NCBI GenBank assembly: GCA_018302705.1
Contig: JAGVZI010000020.1
Location: 1,081-65,080, forward strand
Source: Candidatus Woesearchaeota archaeon
Lineage (GTDB): Archaea > Nanobdellota > Nanobdellia > SCGC-AAA011-G17 > ARS1403
DNA length: 64,000 bases
Reading direction: 5' to 3'
Shown here: piece after piece, positions 8,423-51,726 of the stretch
How the letters are laid out: every line of letters begins with the position of its first letter
Numbering within the stretch: position 1 is the first letter of the stretch
Notes under the pieces: generated by a model
Told to the model about the DNA's origin: nothing
The model's input: only the letters and a program-made list of their open reading frames with translations
Databases searched by the model: none
Program-made: the position numbers and the translations under genes

Positions 8423-10681
8423 TTAAATTCTCTTGGCAGCCCTCTTCAGCCACTCTTCCCATTCAAAATAGATCCTCTTCGGATCCAAATATCCAATTTC
8501 TTTTTTAACTCCCTCGCTAACCCTGTGATAATGATCATTCGCAGCAATTACAAACTTAGCTTCCAAAATATTTTTATTCAATTTAGAGTAATTAACAAGC
8601 GCTTCTTTCATCTTCGCCCTTAATATTATATTGTCCCAGACAGCATCCCAATGCCCGGCCCATTCAGGAATGTTGCTCGCTATATTCTTTATCACTTCGC
8701 TGTTTCCATTTATCAGCTCATCAGTAGCCTGCAAAGAATCTGTTTTGGCATCATATTTCATCAAGTCAACAAAGCCATTTTCTTTCAAAGGATCATCTTC
8801 CCATTTTTTTCTCACTTCAGTTATCTGCACAATTCTCCTCCATTTGCTCAATCCATCAGCGCTTTTAACAGGATTGCATATAACAATCACATCAGTTGCT
8901 TTGAAGCTGGTTTTAGGAACTTGCAGATCATTTACAACCCTATCATAAACACCATAAGGAGAATCGCCATGAATAGTTCCTGCAACTACGTTTGCTAAAG
9001 CTCCAATTCTCATCGCTTCATAAAGTGCTTTACTCTCCAGAGATCTAATCTCTCCGACGATAAGTGCACTATCCCCCATTCTTAATGCAGCCCTAATTCC
9101 TTCTTCAGCACTTACTTCAGTAGCCCCTCCAGCTAATGCGCTTCTAACTTTTAATGGTTGAATATTGTATCCAAGCCCCCTCATAGCATCTACACCAAGT
9201 TCCATTGTGTCTTCGACCGTAATTATTCTGTACTTTCTCATCACCTCAATAAGCAAAGATCCAAGTACACTCGTTTTTCCAGAGCTCCTCGTTCCAGCTA
9301 TAAGTATTGTTCTTGCACCTTCCACAAGAAAACTAATCAGTCCAGCTCCAAGAGGGCTTATCATCCTATTTTCAATGAACAAAGGCAGAGTCCATGGTTC
9401 ATCCCTATGTCTTCTAAAAGCATAAGCCAGTCCTTTAGGATTTAATGGCCTGCCGACGATAGCAACTCTCGCCCTAGCACCAGGAACACTTAATTCAGTA
9501 TCCAAAATTGGATTGGCCTCATCCAAAGGCCTACCGCTTAATATCCTGAATTTAGTCGCCCAGTTCTCAGCATCCTCCGCACTAGGGATAATATTTGTAA
9601 CGCACTCATCATATTTTTGGTGCACAATGAATATAGGGGTGATTCCAATAGGCCCGTTAATAGTTATATCTTGTATTTTCTCATCTTGAAGTAAAACTTC
9701 CAGCAGCCCGAACCCGACAGTGTACCTTACCAATATCGAGGTTAATTCATTTAATTCTTTCAAGCTCAGCTTAACATTCTGCCTGTCAGCAAGCTCCTGC
9801 AGCAGATCCCTGCCAATATTGAAGAAAGTCATCCTCATCCTCTCGGGGTCAATAAATTCCTCTGCCCTTGGCTTGTGCTCTATCAAGACATTCCTTGCCA
9901 TGTCAAGCAGCTCTTGTTTGTCCTCAGTTAATTTAAATTCAGGCGATATTATGTGATACAGATATTTGATGTCCTCGGGTACAGAAAGAATAGTAACATC
10001 TGCATTTCCGATTTTATAGCTGTCTATTTCTTCCCCATCAACAGGAATCCTCGACATCAATCTAGTAAACATAAAATTAGGAGTTATCTCAGCCCGGAAC
10101 AGCTGCCTGTAAATTTCCCGGCCGCCAACTTGGTATCCGTCTAATCTTTTCCTGACGATCCAGATTATTTTTGTCTTATCAAGGAATCCAAAAAATTCAG
10201 TTAATATCTCGATTAAAATCTCGCAAGATTTGATATCGGGCTCATCAACCAGTTTTCCTAAAATAATTTTTTCTTCTCTGATTATCCTCCTTAATTCAAC
10301 ATAAACCCCTACAGGATCCCTGATCAGATTTCTAACCAGGCCCCTGACAACCCCGATTTTGCTGGCTAAATATTTATATCCCTCGTCGGCAGGCATGGCT
10401 AAAAATTTTCCTTGCTTTATAACATGGTTATACAGTCCGGCAATCTCTGCAAGTAATTGCACTTGGCTGTAGCTGTAATTATAATTTCTTTGCTGCACCA
10501 AAACAACCCTGCTAACCCCTGCATTTTCAACTAATTTGTTTATAACATCCTGCATGCACTCCTCGCTGTCCTCAATGCTTGGTATTATCGTCTTTTTAGT
10601 ATAATCAATCCTCAAAACCCTCTCGCTTCCCTCATTAACAATCTCATATTCCCTCTCTTTCTTGTTTTCAAAAAGCGCCAT
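8423..10681 (-). CDS. FlaI/GspE/VirB11-family secretion ATPase with long N-terminal extension
   Basis: Walker A IAGTRSSGKTSVLGSLL. ALIVGEIRS motif typical of FlaI/PilB ATPases. 752 aa. Confidence 0.75.
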   Translation of the reverse strand: MALFENKKEREYEIVNEGSERVLRIDYTKKTIIPSIEDSEECMQDVINKLVENAGVSRVVLVQQRNYNYSYSQVQLLAEIAGLYNHVIKQGKFLAMPADEGYKYLASKIGVVRGLVRNLIRDPVGVYVELRRIIREEKIILGKLVDEPDIKSCEILIEILTEFFGFLDKTKIIWIVRKRLDGYQVGGREIYRQLFRAEITPNFMFTRLMSRIPVDGEEIDSYKIGNADVTILSVPEDIKYLYHIISPEFKLTEDKQELLDMARNVLIEHKPRAEEFIDPERMRMTFFNIGRDLLQELADRQNVKLSLKELNELTSILVRYTVGFGLLEVLLQDEKIQDITINGPIGITPIFIVHQKYDECVTNIIPSAEDAENWATKFRILSGRPLDEANPILDTELSVPGARARVAIVGRPLNPKGLAYAFRRHRDEPWTLPLFIENRMISPLGAGLISFLVEGARTILIAGTRSSGKTSVLGSLLIEVMRKYRIITVEDTMELGVDAMRGLGYNIQPLKVRSALAGGATEVSAEEGIRAALRMGDSALIVGEIRSLESKALYEAMRIGALANVVAGTIHGDSPYGVYDRVVNDLQVPKTSFKATDVIVICNPVKSADGLSKWRRIVQITEVRKKWEDDPLKENGFVDLMKYDAKTDSLQATDELINGNSEVIKNIASNIPEWAGHWDAVWDNIILRAKMKEALVNYSKLNKNILEAKFVIAANDHYHRVSEGVKKEIGYLDPKRIYFEWEEWLKRAAKRI

Positions 10682-36804: not shown

Positions 36805-38469
36805 ATGAAGACGCAAATAATTAATTTATTAAAAAAACATACAAAATTAAAAGAGGTAATTCTAGAAATCCCCCCCTCTCCAGAGCTAGGCGATTATGCA
36901 TTTCCCTGCTTTCAGTTAGCAAAGAAAGAAAAGAAAAACCCAGCAGAAATAGCAGCAAATTTAGCAGCAAAAATTAAACTAATAAAAGGGGTAGAAAAAG
37001 TTCAGCCAACAGGCCCCTACTTAAACTTCTTCCTCGACAAGAGCATTAACTCAGAATTTATTTTATCATCTATTTTAAAGCCAAAAAAGCCCAAGAGAGG
37101 TAAAAATAAAAAGAAAATTGTGATAGAGTCTCCAGGACCAAACACAAACAAACCCTTGCACCTCGGCCATCTAAGAAACATGGTTTTAGGAATCTCAATC
37201 AAAAATCTCCAGGAAGCAGCCGGAAATAAGGCAATTCTCGTTGACATTATCAATGACCGCGGGATTCATATAGCAAAATCAGTACTTGCATACAGCTTGT
37301 ATGGCAATAACAAAAAGCCGGATAAAAAGCCAGACCACTTCATCGGGGATTTCTATGTTTTATTCTCAAAAAAAGCAGCAGAAAATCCAGAGCTGGAAAA
37401 TGAAGCCCATAAGCTGCTGCAGAAATATGAGGCAAAAGACAAAGCAACTCTCTCTTTATTTAAAAGGATGAATGTATGGGCAATCCAAGGCTTTAATCAA
37501 ACCTACAAGAGGGTTGGTATTAAAATTCAGAAAGCATATTTGGAAAGCCAGAATTATGAAAGGGGGAGGGAAATCGTCCTTAATGGCTTGAAGAAAGGGG
37601 TATTTCAAAAAAACAAAGAAGGAAGTATCATAGTAAATCTAGAAGGAGAAGGCCTAGGTGAGAAAGTCCTTCTAAGGGCAGACGGCACCTCAATATACAT
37701 TACTCAGGATATTTACATAGCAATTAAGCGTTATAATGATTTTCACATGGACAAGATGCTTTACATCGTCGGCTCAGAGCAGATCTATCATTTCAAAGTA
37801 CTATTCAAAACACTGGAATTGCTGGGCTATAAGTTCGCAAGAAATTATTTCCACCTGCCTTACGGCATGGTTTATCTTCCCGAAGGAAAGATAAAGTCGA
37901 GGGAGGGGAAAATTGTCGACGCTGATTCTCTTCTTGATCAAATGCACACCCTAGCTGAAAAAGAAATCCGGAAGCGCTATAAAACTCTTTCAAAAAAGGA
38001 AATACAAAAAAGGTCAGAAATAATTGCCCAATCAGCAATAAAATTCTTCCTCTTAAAATATGATCCATTAAAAGATTTCACATTCTTTCCAGAGAAATCA
38101 ATCTCTTTCGAGGGAGACACGGGCCCATATATTCAGTATACATCCGCAAGGGCATCCTCAATACTAAGAAAGGCAAGAACATTCAAGCCAGCATTTAATT
38201 TCACAGAAGAGGTTGAGCAGAAAATAATAAATCACCTCTCGAGATTTCAAGAAACAGTAGGAGAGGCAGCAGGAAAATACTCCCCACATTTAATTGCCCA
38301 TTATTCCCTGGATCTAGCCCATCTATTCAATGAATTTTATCACAAGTATCCTGTCTTGACTGCAGAAAAAGCAATTAAAGAATCAAGGTTAACATTAGTA
38401 AAGGCAACAAATAACATCCTCAAGGCGTCTCTCGAATTGATGGGGATTAAGCCACTAGAAAAGATGTAA
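36805..38469 (+). CDS. argS: Arginyl-tRNA synthetase
   Basis: HIGH motif (PLHLGHLRN), DALR-type anticodon-binding C-terminus, 554 aa. Confidence 0.85.
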   Translation: MKTQIINLLKKHTKLKEVILEIPPSPELGDYAFPCFQLAKKEKKNPAEIAANLAAKIKLIKGVEKVQPTGPYLNFFLDKSINSEFILSSILKPKKPKRGKNKKKIVIESPGPNTNKPLHLGHLRNMVLGISIKNLQEAAGNKAILVDIINDRGIHIAKSVLAYSLYGNNKKPDKKPDHFIGDFYVLFSKKAAENPELENEAHKLLQKYEAKDKATLSLFKRMNVWAIQGFNQTYKRVGIKIQKAYLESQNYERGREIVLNGLKKGVFQKNKEGSIIVNLEGEGLGEKVLLRADGTSIYITQDIYIAIKRYNDFHMDKMLYIVGSEQIYHFKVLFKTLELLGYKFARNYFHLPYGMVYLPEGKIKSREGKIVDADSLLDQMHTLAEKEIRKRYKTLSKKEIQKRSEIIAQSAIKFFLLKYDPLKDFTFFPEKSISFEGDTGPYIQYTSARASSILRKARTFKPAFNFTEEVEQKIINHLSRFQETVGEAAGKYSPHLIAHYSLDLAHLFNEFYHKYPVLTAEKAIKESRLTLVKATNNILKASLELMGIKPLEKM

Positions 38470-38528: not shown

Positions 38529-38963
38529 ATGCCAATTGTAGGATTCCACTTGGAAAAAACACTTGCAGAAAGAACCAAGAAGCTGCAAAAAGGAATGAAA
38601 GCAACCCACAATATCACAATTACATCTATTCAAAATGAAGACATTGAGATGGGGAAATCCACAAAGAAACCAGGTTTAAAATTTAGCTTCGAATACGAAG
38701 TAGATTATCAGCCTAATATAGGCAAAGTATCTATAGAAGGAAGTGTTCTTTATCTTGACGATGAGAAAACAGTAAAAGCCATTCTGGATAACTGGAAAAA
38801 GAACAAAAATGTAAATCAGGAAGTTACTGCTCAAGTCCTAAATACAGCAATTGTCCGTTGCACAATAAAGGCATTAAATATGGCGCAAGAAGTTAATCTC
38901 CCGCCGCACATGCCAATTCCAACAGTAACCCCTAGGGGTAGAGAACAAGATTATATAGGGTAA
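38529..38963 (+). CDS. Hypothetical protein
   Basis: 144 aa, no recognisable motif. Confidence 0.35.
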   Translation: MPIVGFHLEKTLAERTKKLQKGMKATHNITITSIQNEDIEMGKSTKKPGLKFSFEYEVDYQPNIGKVSIEGSVLYLDDEKTVKAILDNWKKNKNVNQEVTAQVLNTAIVRCTIKALNMAQEVNLPPHMPIPTVTPRGREQDYIG

Positions 38964-41935: not shown

Positions 41936-42784
41936 ATGAAAAATGAAGAGGTGTTGGAAAAAGTTGAAAGAGAGTTGAAATTATTAGGTCATAGTCCAAG
42001 AACTATAAATTCCTACTTAACTTATCTAAATGAATTATTCAAATTTACTGGGAAAATACACTCAAGAATCCTGTTCGAAGATATTAAGAAATTCTTAGAG
42101 CATTTAAGCATCGAAAAAAACTACTCTGGATCTAGTTTAAACCTTGCAAGGTCTGCAATCTCTTTCTATTATGAAAAAATGTTGGAAAAATACACAGTTA
42201 GCAAGATAAGAGTTAAGAAAGTGGGCAAAAAACTCCCAAATGTGCTAACAAAACAAGAAGTAAAAAGAATAATCGATGCAGCTTCCAATTTAAGGGATAA
42301 ATTAATCATTCAAATGATGTATTCTTGCGGCCTAAGAGTTTCTGAAGCTGTAAACATAAAGTTAGAAGATTTAGATACCTCTAGACTAACAGGAATAGTA
42401 AGGTCTGGGAAAGGAAATAAAGATAGGGTAATACAATTAAATCCTCCTTTAGTAAACAGTATAGAATCTTATGTTAAAACTAAAAAATTACCTTCTATGT
42501 TCTTGTTTTCTAAATCAAATGGAACCCCCTATACTATTAGGACCTTTCAGATAATAATAAAAAAATTAGCGGAAAAGGCGGGAATAACAAAAAGAGTTCA
42601 TTCTCACATATTTAGACACGCATTTGGTACCCATTTAGTTGAAAAGGGGATAGATATAGTAAGAGTTCAAGGGATGATGGGGCACTCAAATTTAGAAACT
42701 ACAAAATTATACATAAACTTATCAAAAGAACAGTTTAAAGGCGTTGGAAACCTTTTAGATGATTTGGATAAAGATGAAAACTGA
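41936..42784 (+). CDS. Tyrosine recombinase / integrase (XerC/D-like)
   Basis: N-terminal SAM-like core-binding domain. Catalytic box RVHSHIFRHAFGTHLVEKGIDIVRVQGMMGHSNLETTKLYINL, which includes RHxF...H and the catalytic Tyr. Confidence 0.85.
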   Translation: MKNEEVLEKVERELKLLGHSPRTINSYLTYLNELFKFTGKIHSRILFEDIKKFLEHLSIEKNYSGSSLNLARSAISFYYEKMLEKYTVSKIRVKKVGKKLPNVLTKQEVKRIIDAASNLRDKLIIQMMYSCGLRVSEAVNIKLEDLDTSRLTGIVRSGKGNKDRVIQLNPPLVNSIESYVKTKKLPSMFLFSKSNGTPYTIRTFQIIIKKLAEKAGITKRVHSHIFRHAFGTHLVEKGIDIVRVQGMMGHSNLETTKLYINLSKEQFKGVGNLLDDLDKDEN

Positions 42785-43289
42785 AAATATTATTTGTGCA
42801 TATGAATATGAAATTATAGATTGGATTAAAGAAAATTATAAGTTAATAGGTTATGATAAGCTATTAGAAGAAAATAAAAATAAAATCCCAGATTTAGTTA
42901 TGTTAAAAAATGGTAAAAAGGCAAACGTAGAAGTTGAAATTTACTCTAGTTCATTTGTTAAACATAAACATAATCCTAGTAAAATAGATGAAGTTCTTTG
43001 CTTAATCAATGATTCTAAACTGTCTATAAAAACGATTAAAATCAAACAACTTAAATTATGGTATCATTTACAAGGAAATGAGCTAGTTGACTTTTTTAAA
43101 GCCCTGCCAGATACCAATTTAATAGACCACAGATGCAATCAAACAATTTATCATCACCAAAAGGAATGGCTCAATCTTTCCGAAAAAGAGGAAAGAAGAA
43201 TTAGAGAAAATTTGGAAGCACAATCAAGATTTCTAAATACTGGAGATCCAAAGGAATTGAAAGAAAAAGCGGGTGATGTTTTTGACTAA
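42759..43289 (+). CDS. Hypothetical protein, possible PD-(D/E)xK nuclease fold
   Basis: IPDLVMLKNGKKANVEVEIYSS resembles a D...(E/D)xK-type core. Weak evidence. Confidence 0.3.
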   Translation: MIWIKMKTENIICAYEYEIIDWIKENYKLIGYDKLLEENKNKIPDLVMLKNGKKANVEVEIYSSSFVKHKHNPSKIDEVLCLINDSKLSIKTIKIKQLKLWYHLQGNELVDFFKALPDTNLIDHRCNQTIYHHQKEWLNLSEKEERRIRENLEAQSRFLNTGDPKELKEKAGDVFD

Positions 43290-43734
43290 AGCAATGAATA
43301 TTTCATCAGAAACTAGTAGGTGTAAAAGATGCAATAAGATAAAGAAATTCCATGCAAAAGGGTTGTGTAATGTTTGTTATAAGAATTATGGAACAAGATT
43401 AATCATCTGTAAACAATGTAAAGAAAAAAAGAATCATATGGCAAAGGGCTATTGTGGAAATTGTTATAGGAAACGATTCTATTATGATAACACTAAAGCA
43501 AGCAACTTAAGGAGGTATTATGGAGATCTTTCTTTAGAACGATGGAAGGAGATCACTAAAGAATGTGTTTCTTGTAGTTTTAACAAAATTGTTGATGTAC
43601 ATCATATTGATGAAAATAATAAAAATAATTCTAAGAGTAATTTAATTGGTTTATGTCCAAATTGTCATAAATTAATCCATATGGGCCAATATAGGCAGGA
43701 GATAATTAGCAATCTAATACGCCAAAGGATATAA
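43273..43734 (+). CDS. HNH endonuclease with N-terminal Zn-ribbon repeats
   Basis: Three CxxC...CxxC knuckles, then VDVHHIDENNKNN...LCPNCHKLIH (the HNH motif). Confidence 0.8.
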   Translation: MMFLTKAMNISSETSRCKRCNKIKKFHAKGLCNVCYKNYGTRLIICKQCKEKKNHMAKGYCGNCYRKRFYYDNTKASNLRRYYGDLSLERWKEITKECVSCSFNKIVDVHHIDENNKNNSKSNLIGLCPNCHKLIHMGQYRQEIISNLIRQRI

Positions 43735-43791: not shown

Positions 43792-43929
43792 CGCCGAACA
43801 TTGATTATAGACGCTTATGATTTAAGAGTTATCCAAGAATTGTTAGCTCATGAAAATTTAGAAACTACACAAATTTACACAAAAGTTTCAACAAAAACAT
43901 TGAAAGGGGTAAAAAGCCCAAGAGATTAA
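43792..43929 (+). pseudogene. Integrase C-terminal fragment (45 aa, no start codon)
   Basis: [45 protein letters not shown] is homologous to the C-terminus of the integrase at 41936..42784 (NLETTKLYINLSKEQFKGV). A stop lies immediately upstream. Confidence 0.6.
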
Positions 43930-44791: not shown

Positions 44792-45457
44792 GTGATAAGG
44801 AGTCCAAAAACGAAACCGATCAAATTATCTTCAAGCAGTATAAACCTATTCTTAGAATGTCCAAGATGCTTCTATCTGCAAATTGTTAAAGGAATTAAAC
44901 GACCTCAAGGACCTTTCCCCTCTTTGCCTTCAGGAATGGATAAAATATTGAAAGAGCATTTTGACAGGTTTATGGAAAAAGATGAATTGCCTCCAGAGAT
45001 AAAAGGAAAATGCGAAGGCTGCAAATTATTTTTTGATAAAAAACTGCTTGAAATCTGGAGAAATAACAGGAAAGGAATTGAATATACTGATCCTAAAACA
45101 GGAATCTTATTGCATGGAGCTATTGACAATCTTTTAGTTAAAGATGGAAAATTAATTGTCCTAGATTATAAAACAAGGGGCTTTCCAGTTAAAGAAGATA
45201 CTCATGAGGATTATCAATCTCAAATGGATCTTTATAACTTTTTGTTAAATAAAAATGGATATGAAACAGAAAATTATACTTATTTATTATTTTATTATCC
45301 TAAAGAAGTCTTAGAAACTGGAGAAGTTATTTTTGATACAGAACTTGTTAAAATGAAGATCAATGTAAAAGATGGAGAAAAAGCTTTTAATGATGCTGTT
45401 GCTTTGATTAAAGGAGAAGAGCCAGAAGAAAAGTGTGAGTGGTGTGAGGGGAAGTGA
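44792..45457 (+). CDS. Cas4-like / RecB-family PD-(D/E)xK nuclease with 4-Cys cluster (standalone)
   Basis: N-terminal CPRCFY and C-terminal CEWCEG cysteine pairs, in the Cas4/DUF83 1+3 / 2+2 Fe-S arrangement. GAIDNL...VLDYK (D..DxK) core, QxxxY (YQSQMDLY) motif. Confidence 0.6.
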   Translation: MIRSPKTKPIKLSSSSINLFLECPRCFYLQIVKGIKRPQGPFPSLPSGMDKILKEHFDRFMEKDELPPEIKGKCEGCKLFFDKKLLEIWRNNRKGIEYTDPKTGILLHGAIDNLLVKDGKLIVLDYKTRGFPVKEDTHEDYQSQMDLYNFLLNKNGYETENYTYLLFYYPKEVLETGEVIFDTELVKMKINVKDGEKAFNDAVALIKGEEPEEKCEWCEGK

Positions 45458-45532
45458 GATAGACATCAAAACAAATCTTCATGAACTAAAAGAAAAAAAA
45501 TAAGAAAATTCTGCTCACAAACTTATTATAAG

Positions 45533-45844
45533 TTAAAAAATTTTCGTTTTCTCAATCTCTTCTTCGGGATTAAGAGGTTTATAGTCATTAAAATGTTTAA
45601 TGCAAAATTCAATTAATTTATTTGCTAATATCAAGTTTTTATCCACTTCATCCCTTCTTGTTTTACTATCAGCCTTAAACAAATAAATATCTAATAATTC
45701 ATGGTCGTCTGTATAAATCTCCCAATTATTTCTATTCAGAAGAGCTAAAGTTTGTCCATCAGAATTAACATAATCAATATAGTGAGTTTTGTTTTTATGT
45801 TTAACTTCAAATGTTTTTTGAATCGTTGTTTGTTCAATTTTCAT
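45533..45844 (-). CDS. Hypothetical protein
   Basis: 103-aa ORF on the opposite strand within the island. Confidence 0.35.
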   Translation of the reverse strand: MKIEQTTIQKTFEVKHKNKTHYIDYVNSDGQTLALLNRNNWEIYTDDHELLDIYLFKADSKTRRDEVDKNLILANKLIEFCIKHFNDYKPLNPEEEIEKTKIF

Positions 45845-45874
45845 AAAATAAATAAACCAAGGGGATATTTAAAG

Positions 45875-46759
45875 ATGATCATAAAAACACTTAAAAACAA
45901 GCATCTTTATTCAATTATCAAGATGGAATACAAGCCCTACTGTAAGAAAATTGATAGATCAATGATGGATTGGGGGTTCACAATCCCTAAAAATTATGTA
46001 AAAGATTTTGAAGCCGAAATCAGCCTAGATCCTGGAAAATCACGTAGAATCGAGATCCTTTGGGAGAAGAAGAGGTATCCTGCAAAGTTATGTAATGTTA
46101 AAAGGAAGGATTATCCAAAGGTCTATCAATTGAGATGGGATAATAGTCAAGGATTCCTCAATAAATTAAGAAAGACATTTATACAAAGCTATATTGTCTT
46201 CAAAAGCCAAAAGGAATTATTTGATACTCAAAAAAGAGAAGGGCATTTCAGAACAAAAGAGCATCAAGAAGCAATTGTTTTTTCTCCTGTAAATTCTGAA
46301 TTAATACACGCAGAGACTTTCATTAGGGTTGAAAATGAATGGAACTCATTATTTAGGAGGTTAACAGAAGAGAACGTATTTGGATGGATTTTTGATAAAA
46401 ATAAAAAATATTTAATCTCTAGAAGTACAAACTGGATTAAAGCTAGTGAATTTAAGGAACATATTAATGCTACAAATGTAATTTATTATTTAGCAAATAC
46501 AAAAAAAGGATTGATATATGTTGGGAAAGCCGGGGTTTTAGGAAAGAGAGTTAAACCAAAGAAAAGCCACCAAGACATGCCCGACGATTGGGATCTTTTT
46601 AAATATGATATAATAAAACCAGAATATTGTAATCTTTTAGGGAGAATAGAAGATCACACAATTAGGACTCTTGCCGCAATACTAGAGAATGATAAAGGTT
46701 ATCCAACATTGAAGCTCCAAGGGTATAAATTAGTAAATAAAAATTGGAAAAAATTATAA
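45875..46759 (+). CDS. GIY-YIG nuclease with N-terminal putative DNA-recognition domain
   Basis: C-terminal VIYYLANTKKGLIYVGKAG...R...E(RIEDH)...N(VNKNW) matches GIY-(x9)-YVG, Arg, Glu, Asn of GIY-YIG. The start is set at the internal ATG after the GGGGAT SD-like site; track ORF 45752..46759 overlaps the minus-strand gene. Confidence 0.55.
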   Translation: MIIKTLKNKHLYSIIKMEYKPYCKKIDRSMMDWGFTIPKNYVKDFEAEISLDPGKSRRIEILWEKKRYPAKLCNVKRKDYPKVYQLRWDNSQGFLNKLRKTFIQSYIVFKSQKELFDTQKREGHFRTKEHQEAIVFSPVNSELIHAETFIRVENEWNSLFRRLTEENVFGWIFDKNKKYLISRSTNWIKASEFKEHINATNVIYYLANTKKGLIYVGKAGVLGKRVKPKKSHQDMPDDWDLFKYDIIKPEYCNLLGRIEDHTIRTLAAILENDKGYPTLKLQGYKLVNKNWKKL

Positions 46760-47023
46760 GTAATATATGATAATGAAAAGAAAAACAGAGATTAAGTCGG
46801 CAGATCAAAAAGATAATGGAAAATTTATTTCGTTCTGGGAAGAAATGAAGAAAAAAAGAAAAGAGCAAGGAAAATAGTTTTTTTAAAGTCAGAGCTGCTC
46901 AGAACCTCAACACTCTTCTGCGTTAATCTCTCTCCAGGCCTGTCAAACCAAGGCAAGTCTTTGATTTTCATTAAGAAAAGAAAAATAAATGAACGCTTTT
47001 TTAATATCATATCCTAAATATTT

Positions 47024-47702: not shown

Positions 47703-47897
47703 CTATTTCCTAGCCATATTTATTGCCCATAATGCAGCCAAACCTACCAAAACATAGACAATTCTCTCTAGCCAGGAAACCGATCCGAGAATAAGGTTCA
47801 CCAAATTAAAGTCGAGAGCGCCAATCAATCCCCAGTTTATTCCACCAATAATTACTAAGACTAAAGCAATCCAATCCCAAACACTTTTTTCGGCCAT
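47703..47897 (-). CDS. Small two-TM membrane protein
   Basis: 64 aa, hydrophobic. Confidence 0.35.
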   Translation of the reverse strand: MAEKSVWDWIALVLVIIGGINWGLIGALDFNLVNLILGSVSWLERIVYVLVGLAALWAINMARK

Positions 47898-48429: not shown

Positions 48430-48615
48430 GCAGGAGAGAAATCCGGGATAGAAAAAGAAATTTGTCCCAATGCTTTACGACATTCATTTGCAGTGCATCT
48501 ATCAGAAGATGGAAGGGACATAAGATCCATACAAAGATTACCGGGTTACACAGATTTATCGACGACGCATAGACCTACCTACAGAGGGCAGCTAAAGAAA
48601 GCGAAGATCCTCTAG
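48430..48615 (+). pseudogene. Integrase C-terminal fragment (61 codons, no start codon)
   Basis: ...NALRHSFAVHLSEDGRDIRSIQRLPGYTDLSTTHRPTYRGQLKKAKIL* has the RHxFA..HL...GxDxxxIQ..LGH...TT..Y box II of tyrosine recombinases. TGA lies immediately upstream and there is no N-terminal part. Confidence 0.6.
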
Positions 48616-50005: not shown

Positions 50006-50281
50006 TTAAAGCAGATCCTTTATCCTTCCTATGTGGTCCGCAATTTTATTCCCCGTATCTGTCAACTGTATCACTTTAATCCTTCCCTGCTTCTCAAAGC
50101 CGACCAAGCCGGCTTTTTCCATCTCCTGCAGAATTTTCACAGTATGGGAGTAAGTGCAGTCAACTTCCTTTGCTAAAACACTGCCGTATCTATTTCTTAA
50201 ATTCTTCTTCAAAGCCACCAATATCATCGCAGGCTTTCTTCTAAAAAATACCTCAAAGATTTCCTTCTTTTGCTTTGTCAT
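50006..50281 (-). CDS. Winged-helix transcription regulator (ArsR/MarR-like)
   Basis: 91 aa, SVLAKEVDCTYSHTVKILQEMEKAGLVGFEKQGRIKVIQLTDTG. Confidence 0.5.
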   Translation of the reverse strand: MTKQKKEIFEVFFRRKPAMILVALKKNLRNRYGSVLAKEVDCTYSHTVKILQEMEKAGLVGFEKQGRIKVIQLTDTGNKIADHIGRIKDLL

Positions 50282-50445: not shown

Positions 50446-51726
50446 ATGCTAGATATAAGGTTTTTAAAAGAAAATCCGAAATTAGTTAAGGAAAACATAA
50501 GGAAAAAATATCAGGAAGGCAAATTAGTTCTCGTCGATAAAATAATAGAAAATTACTCAAGGGTCTTGAAGTTAAAGAAAGAAGCAGAAGAGTTGCGCCA
50601 TAGAAGGAACAAGCTTTCAATGGAGATAAACGCTTTAGTTAAAAGAAAAGTTGATGCATCTCCAATTATAAAAGAAGTAAAAGGAATCCCTGGAAAAATA
50701 AAAGACCTTGAAGATAAGAAGCACGAGCTTGAGTTGGAAATGAACCTCCGGCTCATACAAATTCCAAACATAATGCATCCGTCCGTGCCTAAAGGAAAGG
50801 ATCATCTGCAGAACAAAGTGATAAAGAAGCAAGGCAAGGTTCCAAAGTTTAATTTTCAAGTGAGAAACCATGTTGAGCTCGGCGAGCATCTCGGAATTTT
50901 GGATTTTGACTCCTCAGCAGAAACTTCTGGGAATGGATTCTATTATTTGAAAGGGAAATTAGCCCTGCTGAATCAGGCCCTGATTAGGTTCATTATTGAT
51001 TTCATGCAGTTAAAAAAGTACCAGTACATTGAAACCCCATTAATGATAAATAAAAAAGTGGCTGCAGCAGCAGGAGATTTAGACGCGTTCGAAAAAGCGC
51101 TATACAAGATTGAAGCAGAAGATCTGTATCTGGTTCCGACAGCAGAGCACTCATTATTGGGGATGCATTCAAATAAAACATTTTCAGATGAGGATCTTCC
51201 AAGAAAATATTTCTCATACTCAATGTGCTTCAGGAAAGAAATCGGAAGCCATGGAATAAATGAAAAAGGTTTGTGGAGAACTCATCAGTTCAATAAAGTT
51301 GAGCAGTTTATTTTTTGCAGGCCAGACGAGTCTTGGAAGATGTATGAGGAATTAAGAAAGAATACAGAGCAGATTTTTCAGAAATTAAAGCTACCTTATA
51401 GAATCCTGGAGTCGTGCTCAGGAGATTTAGGAAATTGGAAGGCAAAATCAGAAGATCTGGAAGTTTACAGGCCGACGACAAAGCAGTACGAGGAAGTTAC
51501 TTCATTAAGCAACTGCGCTGATTTCCAAGCAAGGGATTTGAATATAAAATTTGTTAACAAAAAAGGAGAGAAGCAGGTAGTGCACACATTAAACAACACG
51601 GCAATAGCAACATCTCGCGCTTTAGTCGCAATAATGGAAAGCTATCAGACAAAGAATGGAGAGATAAAAGTTCCGGCTGTGCTGCAGAAATATACGGGGT
51701 TCAAAGATATAGAAAAGCATAAATAA
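50446..51726 (+). CDS. serS: Seryl-tRNA synthetase
   Basis: N-terminal coiled-coil arm plus class II core; resembles seryl-tRNA synthetases. 426 aa. Confidence 0.85.
   Translation: MLDIRFLKENPKLVKENIRKKYQEGKLVLVDKIIENYSRVLKLKKEAEELRHRRNKLSMEINALVKRKVDASPIIKEVKGIPGKIKDLEDKKHELELEMNLRLIQIPNIMHPSVPKGKDHLQNKVIKKQGKVPKFNFQVRNHVELGEHLGILDFDSSAETSGNGFYYLKGKLALLNQALIRFIIDFMQLKKYQYIETPLMINKKVAAAAGDLDAFEKALYKIEAEDLYLVPTAEHSLLGMHSNKTFSDEDLPRKYFSYSMCFRKEIGSHGINEKGLWRTHQFNKVEQFIFCRPDESWKMYEELRKNTEQIFQKLKLPYRILESCSGDLGNWKAKSEDLEVYRPTTKQYEEVTSLSNCADFQARDLNIKFVNKKGEKQVVHTLNNTAIATSRALVAIMESYQTKNGEIKVPAVLQKYTGFKDIEKHK

Follow-up and report, generated by a model that had tools for sequence, protein, structure and literature searches.

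A B3-like–GIY-YIG nuclease of probable restriction type and its small partner gene in a variable defence hotspot of a Woesearchaeota chromosome

In the 64-kb stretch of DNA analysed here (contig JAGVZI010000020.1 of a Candidatus Woesearchaeota archaeon, positions 1,081 to 65,080, hereafter the window), the gene at 45923-46759 very probably encodes a restriction-type defence nuclease, in which a predicted B3-like DNA-reading domain precedes a C-terminal GIY-YIG catalytic domain. It adjoins a small gene of opposite orientation, hereafter the partner gene, and both lie between a Cas4-like nuclease gene and a RadC-N-like mini-open reading frame (mini-ORF), a slot that is a variable defence hotspot on this Woesearchaeota (DPANN) chromosome, where related genomes carry the unrelated nuclease DpnI beside the same small gene. 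Taken as a whole, the locus is read, with somewhat better than even confidence, as a stand-alone and probably modification-dependent nuclease cassette with its partner gene in a defence hotspot; considered by itself, the dependence of the enzyme on DNA modification is a tentative proposal, held at a little less than even. A preliminary description of 44792-46759 had reported three open reading frames (ORFs), namely a Cas4-like nuclease, an opposite-strand ORFan and a GIY-YIG nuclease, all of which are present as described. The features under study are the following:

44792-45457, forward strand: putative Cas4-like nuclease of the PD-(D/E)XK type with a CxxC...CxxC site for a metal or an Fe-S cluster, 221 amino acids, at the border of the variable slot
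45533-45844, reverse strand: small partner protein, 103 amino acids, isoelectric point 5.8
45866-45880, reverse strand: promoter-like motif GATCATCTTTAAATA, in which the palindrome ATGATCAT comes before a TATA box, at about 22 nt from the partner ATG on its upstream side
45923-46759, forward strand: predicted B3-like–GIY-YIG nuclease, 278 amino acids from M17, in an ORF open from 45875 (294 amino acids)
45932-46339, forward strand: predicted N-terminal B3-like DNA-binding pseudobarrel, residues about 20-155, with a disordered insert at 115-128
46466-46756, forward strand: predicted C-terminal GIY-YIG catalytic domain, residues 198-294

The GIY-YIG protein had been given a length of about 295 amino acids, and the ORF is indeed open from 45875, but the start at 45923 is likelier since relatives, of 266-283 amino acids, have their first residue at the position of M17; besides, the ATG at 45875 falls within the conserved promoter motif of the divergent partner ORF. 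Residue numbers given here follow the 294-amino-acid ORF. In this protein, VIYYLANTKKGLIYVGKA reads IYY-x9-YVG, and the core proposed in the preliminary description (IYY-x9-YVG, R, E, N) is conserved, Y204, Y215-V-G217, R225, E259 and N288 being all invariant in 41 close relatives. Among 57 diverse relatives (down to about 20% identity), Y204, Y215, G217, E259 and N288 remain invariant, and R225 is found in at least 90%. The GIY tyrosine, the YIG Tyr-x-Gly, the arginine, the metal-binding glutamate and the C-terminal asparagine thus follow one another in the expected order over about 90 amino acids. The window protein itself has no direct match in Pfam (E<=0.1), NCBIfam, PADLOC or PHROG, and a phmmer search against the Protein Data Bank (PDB) was empty; PF01541 is matched by 48 of the 57 relatives (best 1.2e-8), one of which (P0253) passes the gathering score, and a profile of the family compared with solved structures matches over the GIY...YIG...R segment T4 EndoII (1.2e-3), I-TevI (3.8e-3) and UvrC (0.015). 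An AlphaFold2 model built with 41 sequences (mean predicted local distance difference test score, pLDDT, of 78, reaching 87-96 over residues 20-100) gives the C-terminal domain a beta-beta-alpha-beta-alpha-alpha topology, with strands at 200-208, 213-221 and 241-247 and helices at 222-225, 255-269 and 289-292 (pLDDT 65-90). When the whole model was submitted to Foldseek, no GIY-YIG chain appeared among the top 50 PDB matches. The assignment rests on the motifs, the PF01541 matches of relatives and the profile matches to solved structures and, judged from these, 45923-46759 is predicted to encode a true GIY-YIG nuclease with an intact catalytic set.

The N-terminal domain had been presented as novel, with B3-like among the folds proposed for it; the latter suggestion is upheld by Foldseek, and the novelty of the fold is not. 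Against the PDB, B3 domains make up the whole of the top 10, and of the 50 matches listed 14 are B3-type, including the ARF1 DNA-binding domain (3.7e-4, probability 1.0) and the LlaJI.R1 N-domain (6c5d; 3.3e-3, target-normalised template modelling score 0.47), with VAL1 (0.59 on the latter score), LEC2 (0.55), FUS3 (0.57), MpARF2 and BfiI as further matches. By these matches, the modelled N-domain (pLDDT 87-96) is assigned to the pseudobarrel fold, an open barrel of seven strands with two helices. Neither Pfam B3 nor EcoRII-N matches the window protein or any of the 57 relatives, so the kinship with B3 is at the level of the fold only. By profile search, the N-domain of the window protein (E 1e-9 to 1e-12 over the entire protein library) recurs at the N-terminus of other proteins, namely McrB-like AAA_5 proteins, with or without EVE or MrcB_N domains, an HNH protein, and a protein whose C-terminal part has a weak, sub-threshold match to the FokI cleavage domain. 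In P0224, P0233, P0244 and P0254, the B3-like N-domain is combined with EVE or MrcB_N modified-base readers in a single polypeptide, the readers of P0224 and P0233 standing ahead of a McrB-type AAA_5 motor, as multi-reader restriction proteins. Another McrB-like protein bearing the shared N-domain (P0261) matches by sequence the McrB of E. coli and not the LlaJI.R1 N-domain.

B3 domains are the recognition modules of EcoRII, BfiI, LlaJI.R1 and the Menshen defence sensors (PMC4081073, PMC7680126, PMC12065111). As in BfiI, EcoRII and LlaJI.R1, the B3-like pseudobarrel appears as a separable recognition module placed on an unrelated catalytic or motor module, and the architecture of LlaJI.R1 is that of the McrB-like AAA_5 proteins whose N-domains are related in sequence to that of the window protein; in contrast to these enzymes, the module joined to it here is GIY-YIG instead of PLD, PD-(D/E)XK or McrBC, and no methylase is adjacent. 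On the strength of the model, the N-domain is predicted to be a reusable DNA-reading module of restriction enzymes, i.e. an uncurated family of a known fold and not a new fold. In the literature, we found no paper describing the association of B3 with GIY-YIG, and relatives are labelled at NCBI only as "GIY-YIG nuclease family protein". What is new here is thus the combination of two known restriction-enzyme modules, which overturns no current concept.

The distribution of the family is patchy. A word-indexed search gave 211 relatives of 266-283 amino acids with 54-74% identity, in archaea as well as in bacteria, and 392 cluster representatives with E<=1e-3 were found among 1.8 billion proteins. 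With one genome retained per species, 18 loci (48-72% identity) comprise 5 from DPANN archaea, 7 from bacteria of the Candidate Phyla Radiation (CPR) and 6 from other bacteria, and no relative was found among the 2.9 million viral contigs of IMG/VR. In relatives that share only the GIY-YIG domain and have other N-termini, a scan for the DpnI-type winged helix found none.

The neighbourhoods were surveyed through the 129 ORFs lying within 3.5 kb of 19 family loci, and they are rich in restriction-modification (R-M) components, in support of the defence role that was one of the options of the preliminary description. Type I R-M is represented by Methylase_S (4), HsdR-type (3-4) and N6_Mtase (2) genes, other methylases by D12 (3), Eco57I-type (3) and N6_N4 (2), and nuclease-type neighbours by DpnII (2), HincII (1) and NERD (2), with a methyltransferase present in at least 12 of the 19 loci. 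No methylase is constant beside the family across these loci, and the neighbouring ones have no C5-methylase motifs; because the neighbouring R-M systems differ from one another and are self-sufficient, none can be taken as cognate. In the window, no [DNS]PP[YFWH] or PCQ methylase motif occurs in ORFs of at least 120 amino acids. The B3-like reader is fused to a nuclease domain in the absence of a cognate methyltransferase, and the adjacent cognate methyltransferase that characterises Type II R-M systems of the Eco29kI or Hpy188I type was not found; such a pattern typifies a defence nuclease that stands alone, and not a Type II pair. As a separate observation, genes for TspO/MBR membrane proteins recur near B3-GIY-YIG genes (L009, 5447-5911; L012, 5242-5637; L022, 9407-9892), and another is found near an ortholog of the Cas4-like gene (L027, 11687-12148).

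The partner gene had been regarded as a mere spacer ORFan between both nucleases, a view that does not hold since its family recurrently adjoins restriction nuclease genes. An NCBI protein from Candidatus Woesearchaeota archaeon shares 100% identity with it, and the ORF has no match in Pfam, NCBIfam, PADLOC or PHROG; its family counts 13 homolog clusters, all DPANN, with remoter relatives in 32 metagenome loci. In five independent genomic contexts, the relatives stand head-to-head with DpnI at a distance of 50-80 bp, the latter being identified by PF06044 plus PF17726 (1e-62 to 1e-69). A relative lies once beside a BglII-like enzyme with a methylase nearby, and once near a methylase and an unassigned ORF of 197 amino acids (L056 and L060). 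The partner gene adjoins the B3-GIY-YIG gene in the window and in the Nanoarchaeota locus L008 and, in the places shown among 22 contigs of this population with the identical small gene, the GIY-YIG gene adjoins it wherever the flank is long enough to tell. The AlphaFold2 model of the partner protein (pLDDT 72.6) consists of a beta-hairpin, a strand and a long helix, for which fold searches found nothing below E 0.1, either in PDB or in BFVD. As a candidate controller (C) protein of R-M systems it was rejected, with no match to a helix-turn-helix family and no Xre-type fold in the model. Remote relatives of the partner (L044, L052, L056, L057, L064, L065), as well as the segment 4837-5930 of L008, are found among repeated winged-helix/HEPN-like pairs and PIN genes, surroundings that resemble DPANN genomic islands of the toxin-antitoxin type.

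Upstream of the partner gene, the promoter-like element together with its palindrome corresponds to ATGATCAT-TTTAAATA. The motif GATCATCTTTAAATA is kept in the window and in L028, L031, L040, L047, L008 and L041, and the surrounding intergenic DNA is not. Similarity on the nuclease side ends about 50 nt upstream of the partner ATG. The motif delimits the portion of the cassette that is conserved. The exact motif occurs once in the window, and the matches allowing 3 mismatches (14 observed vs. 8.4 expected) are near chance. GATC is the recognition sequence of DpnI. It is present inside the palindrome, beside the TATA box, and DpnI is the most frequent neighbour of the partner; this GATC may represent an operator, a methylation-sensitive promoter or a coincidence. 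From such contexts, the partner protein might tentatively be regarded as a regulator or modulator of the nuclease.

The comparison with DpnI-bearing loci reveals an exchange of nucleases beside the same small gene. Locus L031, which carries DpnI, shares with the window the Cas4-like gene (73% identity), the zf_Tbcl_2 gene (55%), a glutaredoxin gene (70%) and the ORF 50006-50281 (93%), while L028, also with DpnI, shares three ORFs located at 38.5-40.8 kb, the ORF 47703-47897 (64%) and an integrase matching a remnant in the window (88%). Gene order and orientation are only partly preserved between the window and either locus. From the shared flanking genes and the retained small gene, it follows that related genomes carry DpnI where the window carries B3-GIY-YIG, i.e. 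one nuclease replaces the other. This is reminiscent of the pneumococcal DpnI/DpnII/DpnIII cassettes, where unrelated restriction systems swap at one locus with shared flanks and where the DpnI cassette (dpnC/dpnD) likewise has a second small gene of unknown function, dpnD (PMC4471560). It differs from them by the DPANN hosts and by the retention of the small gene and its promoter while the nuclease is swapped.

The working mechanism would then involve a cassette of two genes, namely the partner gene, under a conserved promoter of its own, and a divergent single-chain endonuclease, whose N-terminal B3-like pseudobarrel would bind DNA and be joined by a helical linker to a minimal GIY-YIG domain. 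The latter would cut with a single metal ion, the GIY tyrosine serving as general base, as known for Eco29kI, Hpy188I and I-TevI (PMC4081073). The target would be DNA bearing a foreign modification, which would make the protein a Type IV or Type IIM-like enzyme, because no constant methyltransferase accompanies the family, no methylase motif is present in the window and DpnI holds the position elsewhere. Dam-type methylation of GATC would not be the target, at least in L005, L013 and L014, where Dam-like methylases adjoin family members.

Two groups of known enzymes come close to this proposal. The wH-GIY-YIG enzymes Ahi29725I and Apa233I are likewise chains of about 280 amino acids with an N-terminal reader and a C-terminal GIY-YIG domain, have no cognate methylase and are functional analogues of DpnI, whose cassette position the window gene holds (bioRxiv 10.1101/2023.06.07.544091). 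They differ from the window protein in that its reader is B3-like instead of a winged helix of the DpnI type, with no PF17726 match, and in that Dam-like methylases lie beside some B3-GIY-YIG members. CMoRE, a single-protein GIY-YIG Type IV enzyme, is also stand-alone, associates GIY-YIG with a sensing domain and has no methylase (PMC12923530), but there GIY-YIG is N-terminal whereas it is C-terminal here, and the sensing fold is different; by sequence, the window family matches no solved chain beyond EndoII, I-TevI and UvrC.

Several observations weigh against a modification-dependent cassette built on the partner gene. Recognition of a modified base is not known for any B3 domain. At several loci, the family has Dam-like, N6_N4 and Type I methylases next to it; the partner is found with the GIY-YIG gene at no more than 2 of the 20 loci of the family, in L008 with a different orientation, and in L041, L043 and L044 the partner occurs with no adjacent nuclease. 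Moreover, all the solved B3 domains of restriction enzymes, namely EcoRII-N, BfiI-C and LlaJI.R1-N, bind unmodified specific sites (PMC7680126, PMC12065111, PMC4081073).

The last point is equally the first argument for a sequence-specific enzyme of Type IIS/IIE-like character, where the B3 domain would read an unmodified site and GIY-YIG cut nearby, the host being protected by a remote methyltransferase or by site avoidance. LlaJI.R1-N and BfiI are also among the top fold matches, a methyltransferase is within reach at most of the loci surveyed, as counted above, and GTAC, ACGT and CGCG are depleted across the whole window (0.25, 0.20 and 0.37 of an expectation based on mononucleotides only), which may reflect restriction pressure, whether past or present. 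Yet, the nearby methyltransferases differ in class and mostly belong to their own complete systems (Type I, DpnII plus Dam-like, Eco57I-type), and none is present in the 64-kb window, as judged from the methylase motifs sought in its ORFs of at least 120 amino acids. In Type II systems, the restriction and modification genes are normally adjacent. Such adjacency is not seen here, a recognition domain 54-74% identical across archaea and bacteria is unusual for a Type II specificity domain, and DpnI holds the cassette position in related genomes. This explanation, which survives best among the alternatives, is considered unlikely.

A selfish gene of the homing type, spreading by the cleavage of empty sites and present in the island by virtue of its mobility, would account for the patchy spread across domains (the 5 DPANN, 7 CPR and 6 other bacterial loci among 18 genomes) and for high identity (48-72%) in varied genomic contexts, all the more as GIY-YIG is a classic fold of homing endonucleases (PMC1564403). 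This is improbable given that none of the 2.9 million viral contigs holds a relative, that the gene is intergenic on the chromosome with no intron or intein context, and that the reader is N-terminal and GIY-YIG C-terminal, which is the reverse of the I-TevI-type order. Furthermore, the N-domain is common to McrB-like restriction GTPases and HNH proteins, and the neighbours are R-M systems instead of conserved target genes.

The Cas4-like gene calls for a separate account, as the preliminary description had seen in the two nucleases a viral anti-restriction/recombination module or a defence pair. The refuting outcome named beforehand, i.e. profile searches failing to support either nuclease, did not materialise. 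The Cas4-like protein matches Pfam PDDEXK_1 at 2e-12 (48 bits, cut-off 22), PADLOC Cas4 models at 1.7e-10 and the phage family phrog_31195 at 3e-34. When 19 relatives are aligned, D112, D125-Y-K127 (DxK), Q144...Y148 (QxxxY), C23, C26, C215 and C218 are invariant, and a third CxxC pair (C74/C77) is not conserved. The QxxxY and DxK motifs and the four cysteines initially pointed out are thus borne out, but the cysteines are arranged as CxxC...CxxC (2+2) and not as the 1+3 of canonical Cas4 (C...CxxCx5C), and the score against TIGR00372 (31.1 bits) is under the curated equivalog cut-off of 65. As first stated, nothing of a CRISPR system is nearby: the array search of the 64-kb window was empty, and no cas gene is present among the scanned ORFs of the window, nor among the scanned neighbours in L025-L027. 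The protein is akin to Cas4 (TIGR00372) and to AddB-type Fe-S PD-(D/E)XK exonucleases in its RecB-type motifs D, DxK and QxxxY and in cysteines at both termini; it departs from Cas4 by the sub-cut-off score, the 2+2 cysteines, the lack of cas genes and array, and its conservation as a DPANN-wide gene. By the curated test, the sequence at 44792-45457 does not qualify as a Cas4.

This family has more than 3300 relatives, the best 120 clusters being 65-84% identical, with named members from Woesearchaeota, Nanoarchaeota and Pacearchaeota. Two genes, for 229 and 248 amino acids, upstream of the GIY-YIG family members in L003 and L005, taken as candidate Cas4-like homologs, were discarded as unrelated to the window protein and to each other. 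The upstream neighbour, a zf_Tbcl_2 gene, is syntenic and lies outside the nuclease cassette; in the Woesearchaeota locus L025, the orthologs of both genes, each 81% identical, keep this order, and a XerA-like gene precedes them by 5 kb. Downstream come small ORFs, DUF3800, DUF5655 and an N6_N4 methylase in L025, MazG, an SLFN-like helicase and RadC in L026, other genes and a methylase in L027, a PLD nuclease followed by the small partner ORF and DpnI in L031, and the small partner ORF followed by a NucS_C-like nuclease in L041. Because the downstream cargo differs each time, the Cas4-like gene is the conserved border of a defence-rich slot and no specific partner of GIY-YIG; it is probably an unrelated neighbour encoding a housekeeping recombination or repair exonuclease.

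Cooperation between the Cas4-like and GIY-YIG nucleases, be it as a viral anti-restriction/recombination module or as a two-nuclease defence pair, could be advocated from the gammaproteobacterial locus L019, where the GIY-YIG gene is followed after 8 bp by a PDDEXK_1 gene (36% identical to that of the window) and an overlapping NERD gene, from the Yonathbacteria locus L020, where a NERD homolog comes directly after the GIY-YIG gene, from the phage relative phrog_31195, and from the defence-type cargo that comes after the Cas4-like gene in each of the six DPANN contexts inspected. Nonetheless, a neighbour of Cas4-like or PDDEXK_1 type is present at only 2 of 20 GIY-YIG loci and a GIY-YIG gene in only 1 of 6 close Cas4-like contexts. 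The Cas4-like gene keeps its place whatever lies downstream. Between the two nuclease genes of the window stands a gene on the opposite strand that has a promoter of its own, and the Cas4-like protein is the ortholog of the DPANN-wide gene and not of the L019 protein. A viral origin finds no support either: IMG/VR holds no relatives and the remainder of the window is an archaeal chromosome. There is thus little to be said for such a pair or module, which we rate as quite improbable. In their own right, L019 (5811-8158) and L020 (5992-7588) may represent a bacterial operonic variant of the family.

Finally, a repair or structure-specific nuclease of the UvrC/Cho/SLX1-like kind, recruited by its B3-like domain to damaged or mismatched DNA, is the least credible alternative, since the reach of the GIY-YIG profile to the UvrC N-terminal domain and the presence of RadC-N-like and Cas4-like repair-type genes nearby are offset by a sporadic, horizontally transferred distribution unlike that of a core gene, by R-M-rich neighbourhoods and by an N-domain common to restriction GTPases.

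The preferred reading, that of a stand-alone restriction-type nuclease, is set in a region bearing marks of recombination, for which the further features of the window are the following:

41936-42784: XerA-type recombinase (NCBIfam XerA, 231 bits, cut-off 220)
43801-43929, forward strand: C-terminal remnant of a second tyrosine integrase, 88% identity over 42 amino acids to the integrase C-terminus in L028, L037 and L038
44409-44744, forward strand: zf_Tbcl_2 protein (CxxC-x17-CxxC) with an Arg-rich N-terminus (Pfam PF23477, 2.4e-17; TIGR04272, 6.5e-17)
46825-47010, reverse strand: RadC-N-terminal-like mini-ORF (IKDLPWFDRPGERL), 61 amino acids, landmark at the far side of the variable slot
48493-48615, forward strand: another short tyrosine integrase C-terminal remnant

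The 64 kb belong to an archaeal chromosome, as indicated by PolD DP2, a topoisomerase, Orc1/Cdc6, CDC48, Lon and several tRNA synthetases, and the nearest relatives of the Cas4-like, 103-amino-acid and GIY-YIG genes are all from Woesearchaeota or Nanoarchaeota. Between the ArgRS (36805-38469) and SerRS (50446-51726) genes, the G+C content falls to 0.26-0.32 vs. 0.37 for the whole window, and this low-G+C stretch contains the XerA-type recombinase, an HNH protein, the two integrase C-terminal remnants, the zf_Tbcl_2 gene and the three ORFs under study. As tRNA and Rfam scans of the window returned 0 matches, it contains no tRNA integration site. The integrase matching the remnant at 43801-43929 directly adjoins the pair of partner gene and DpnI in L028, L037 and L038, and the remnants suggest past integration or excision events in the slot. 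On the far side, the RadC-N-like mini-ORF is 71% identical to a 57-amino-acid ORF of L025 (11835-12008; weak PF20582) located 5 kb downstream of the Cas4-like ortholog, and a full-length RadC (8866-9543) occupies its place downstream of the Cas4-like gene in L026.

Some additional observations concern this region. At 41936-43734, the XerA-type recombinase is followed by a familyless ORF of 176 amino acids and by the HNH protein (153 amino acids, with N-terminal CxxC pairs), with overlapping stops and starts, and this trio is kept in the population contigs L068-L070. With ArgRS as the reference, the block that runs from the ORF at 38529 to the partner gene has opposite orientations in the window and in L028, as would fit a rearrangement of this region by a recombinase. 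The segment 44369-44396, immediately upstream of the zf_Tbcl_2 gene, is a perfect 14-nt tandem duplication (two copies of CTTAGCATAGTTTA).

A bolder proposal, of low probability, is that the B3-like domain reads a modified base or a modified sequence context and that the partner is a DPANN regulator or modulator serving the unrelated DpnI, BglII-like and B3-GIY-YIG enzymes interchangeably through the ATGATCAT-TATA element. If true, the domain would be the first of the B3 type to sense a modification, the enzyme would represent a new class of Type IV nucleases made of one chain, and the partner would be a new DPANN-specific protein of unassigned fold, as an archaeal analogue of C-protein control. 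On the applied side, restriction enzymes built in a modular way from a reader and a cutter are raw material for new DNA-analysis reagents; a B3-GIY-YIG enzyme of 278 amino acids with conserved specificity would be a new candidate reagent, and would bring a new reader fold if modification-dependent. The defence biology of DPANN archaea is little known, and one defence gene is common here to DPANN archaea and CPR bacteria. The locus also illustrates clearly how, in nature, unrelated nucleases take each other's place on DPANN chromosomes next to a small gene that is kept.

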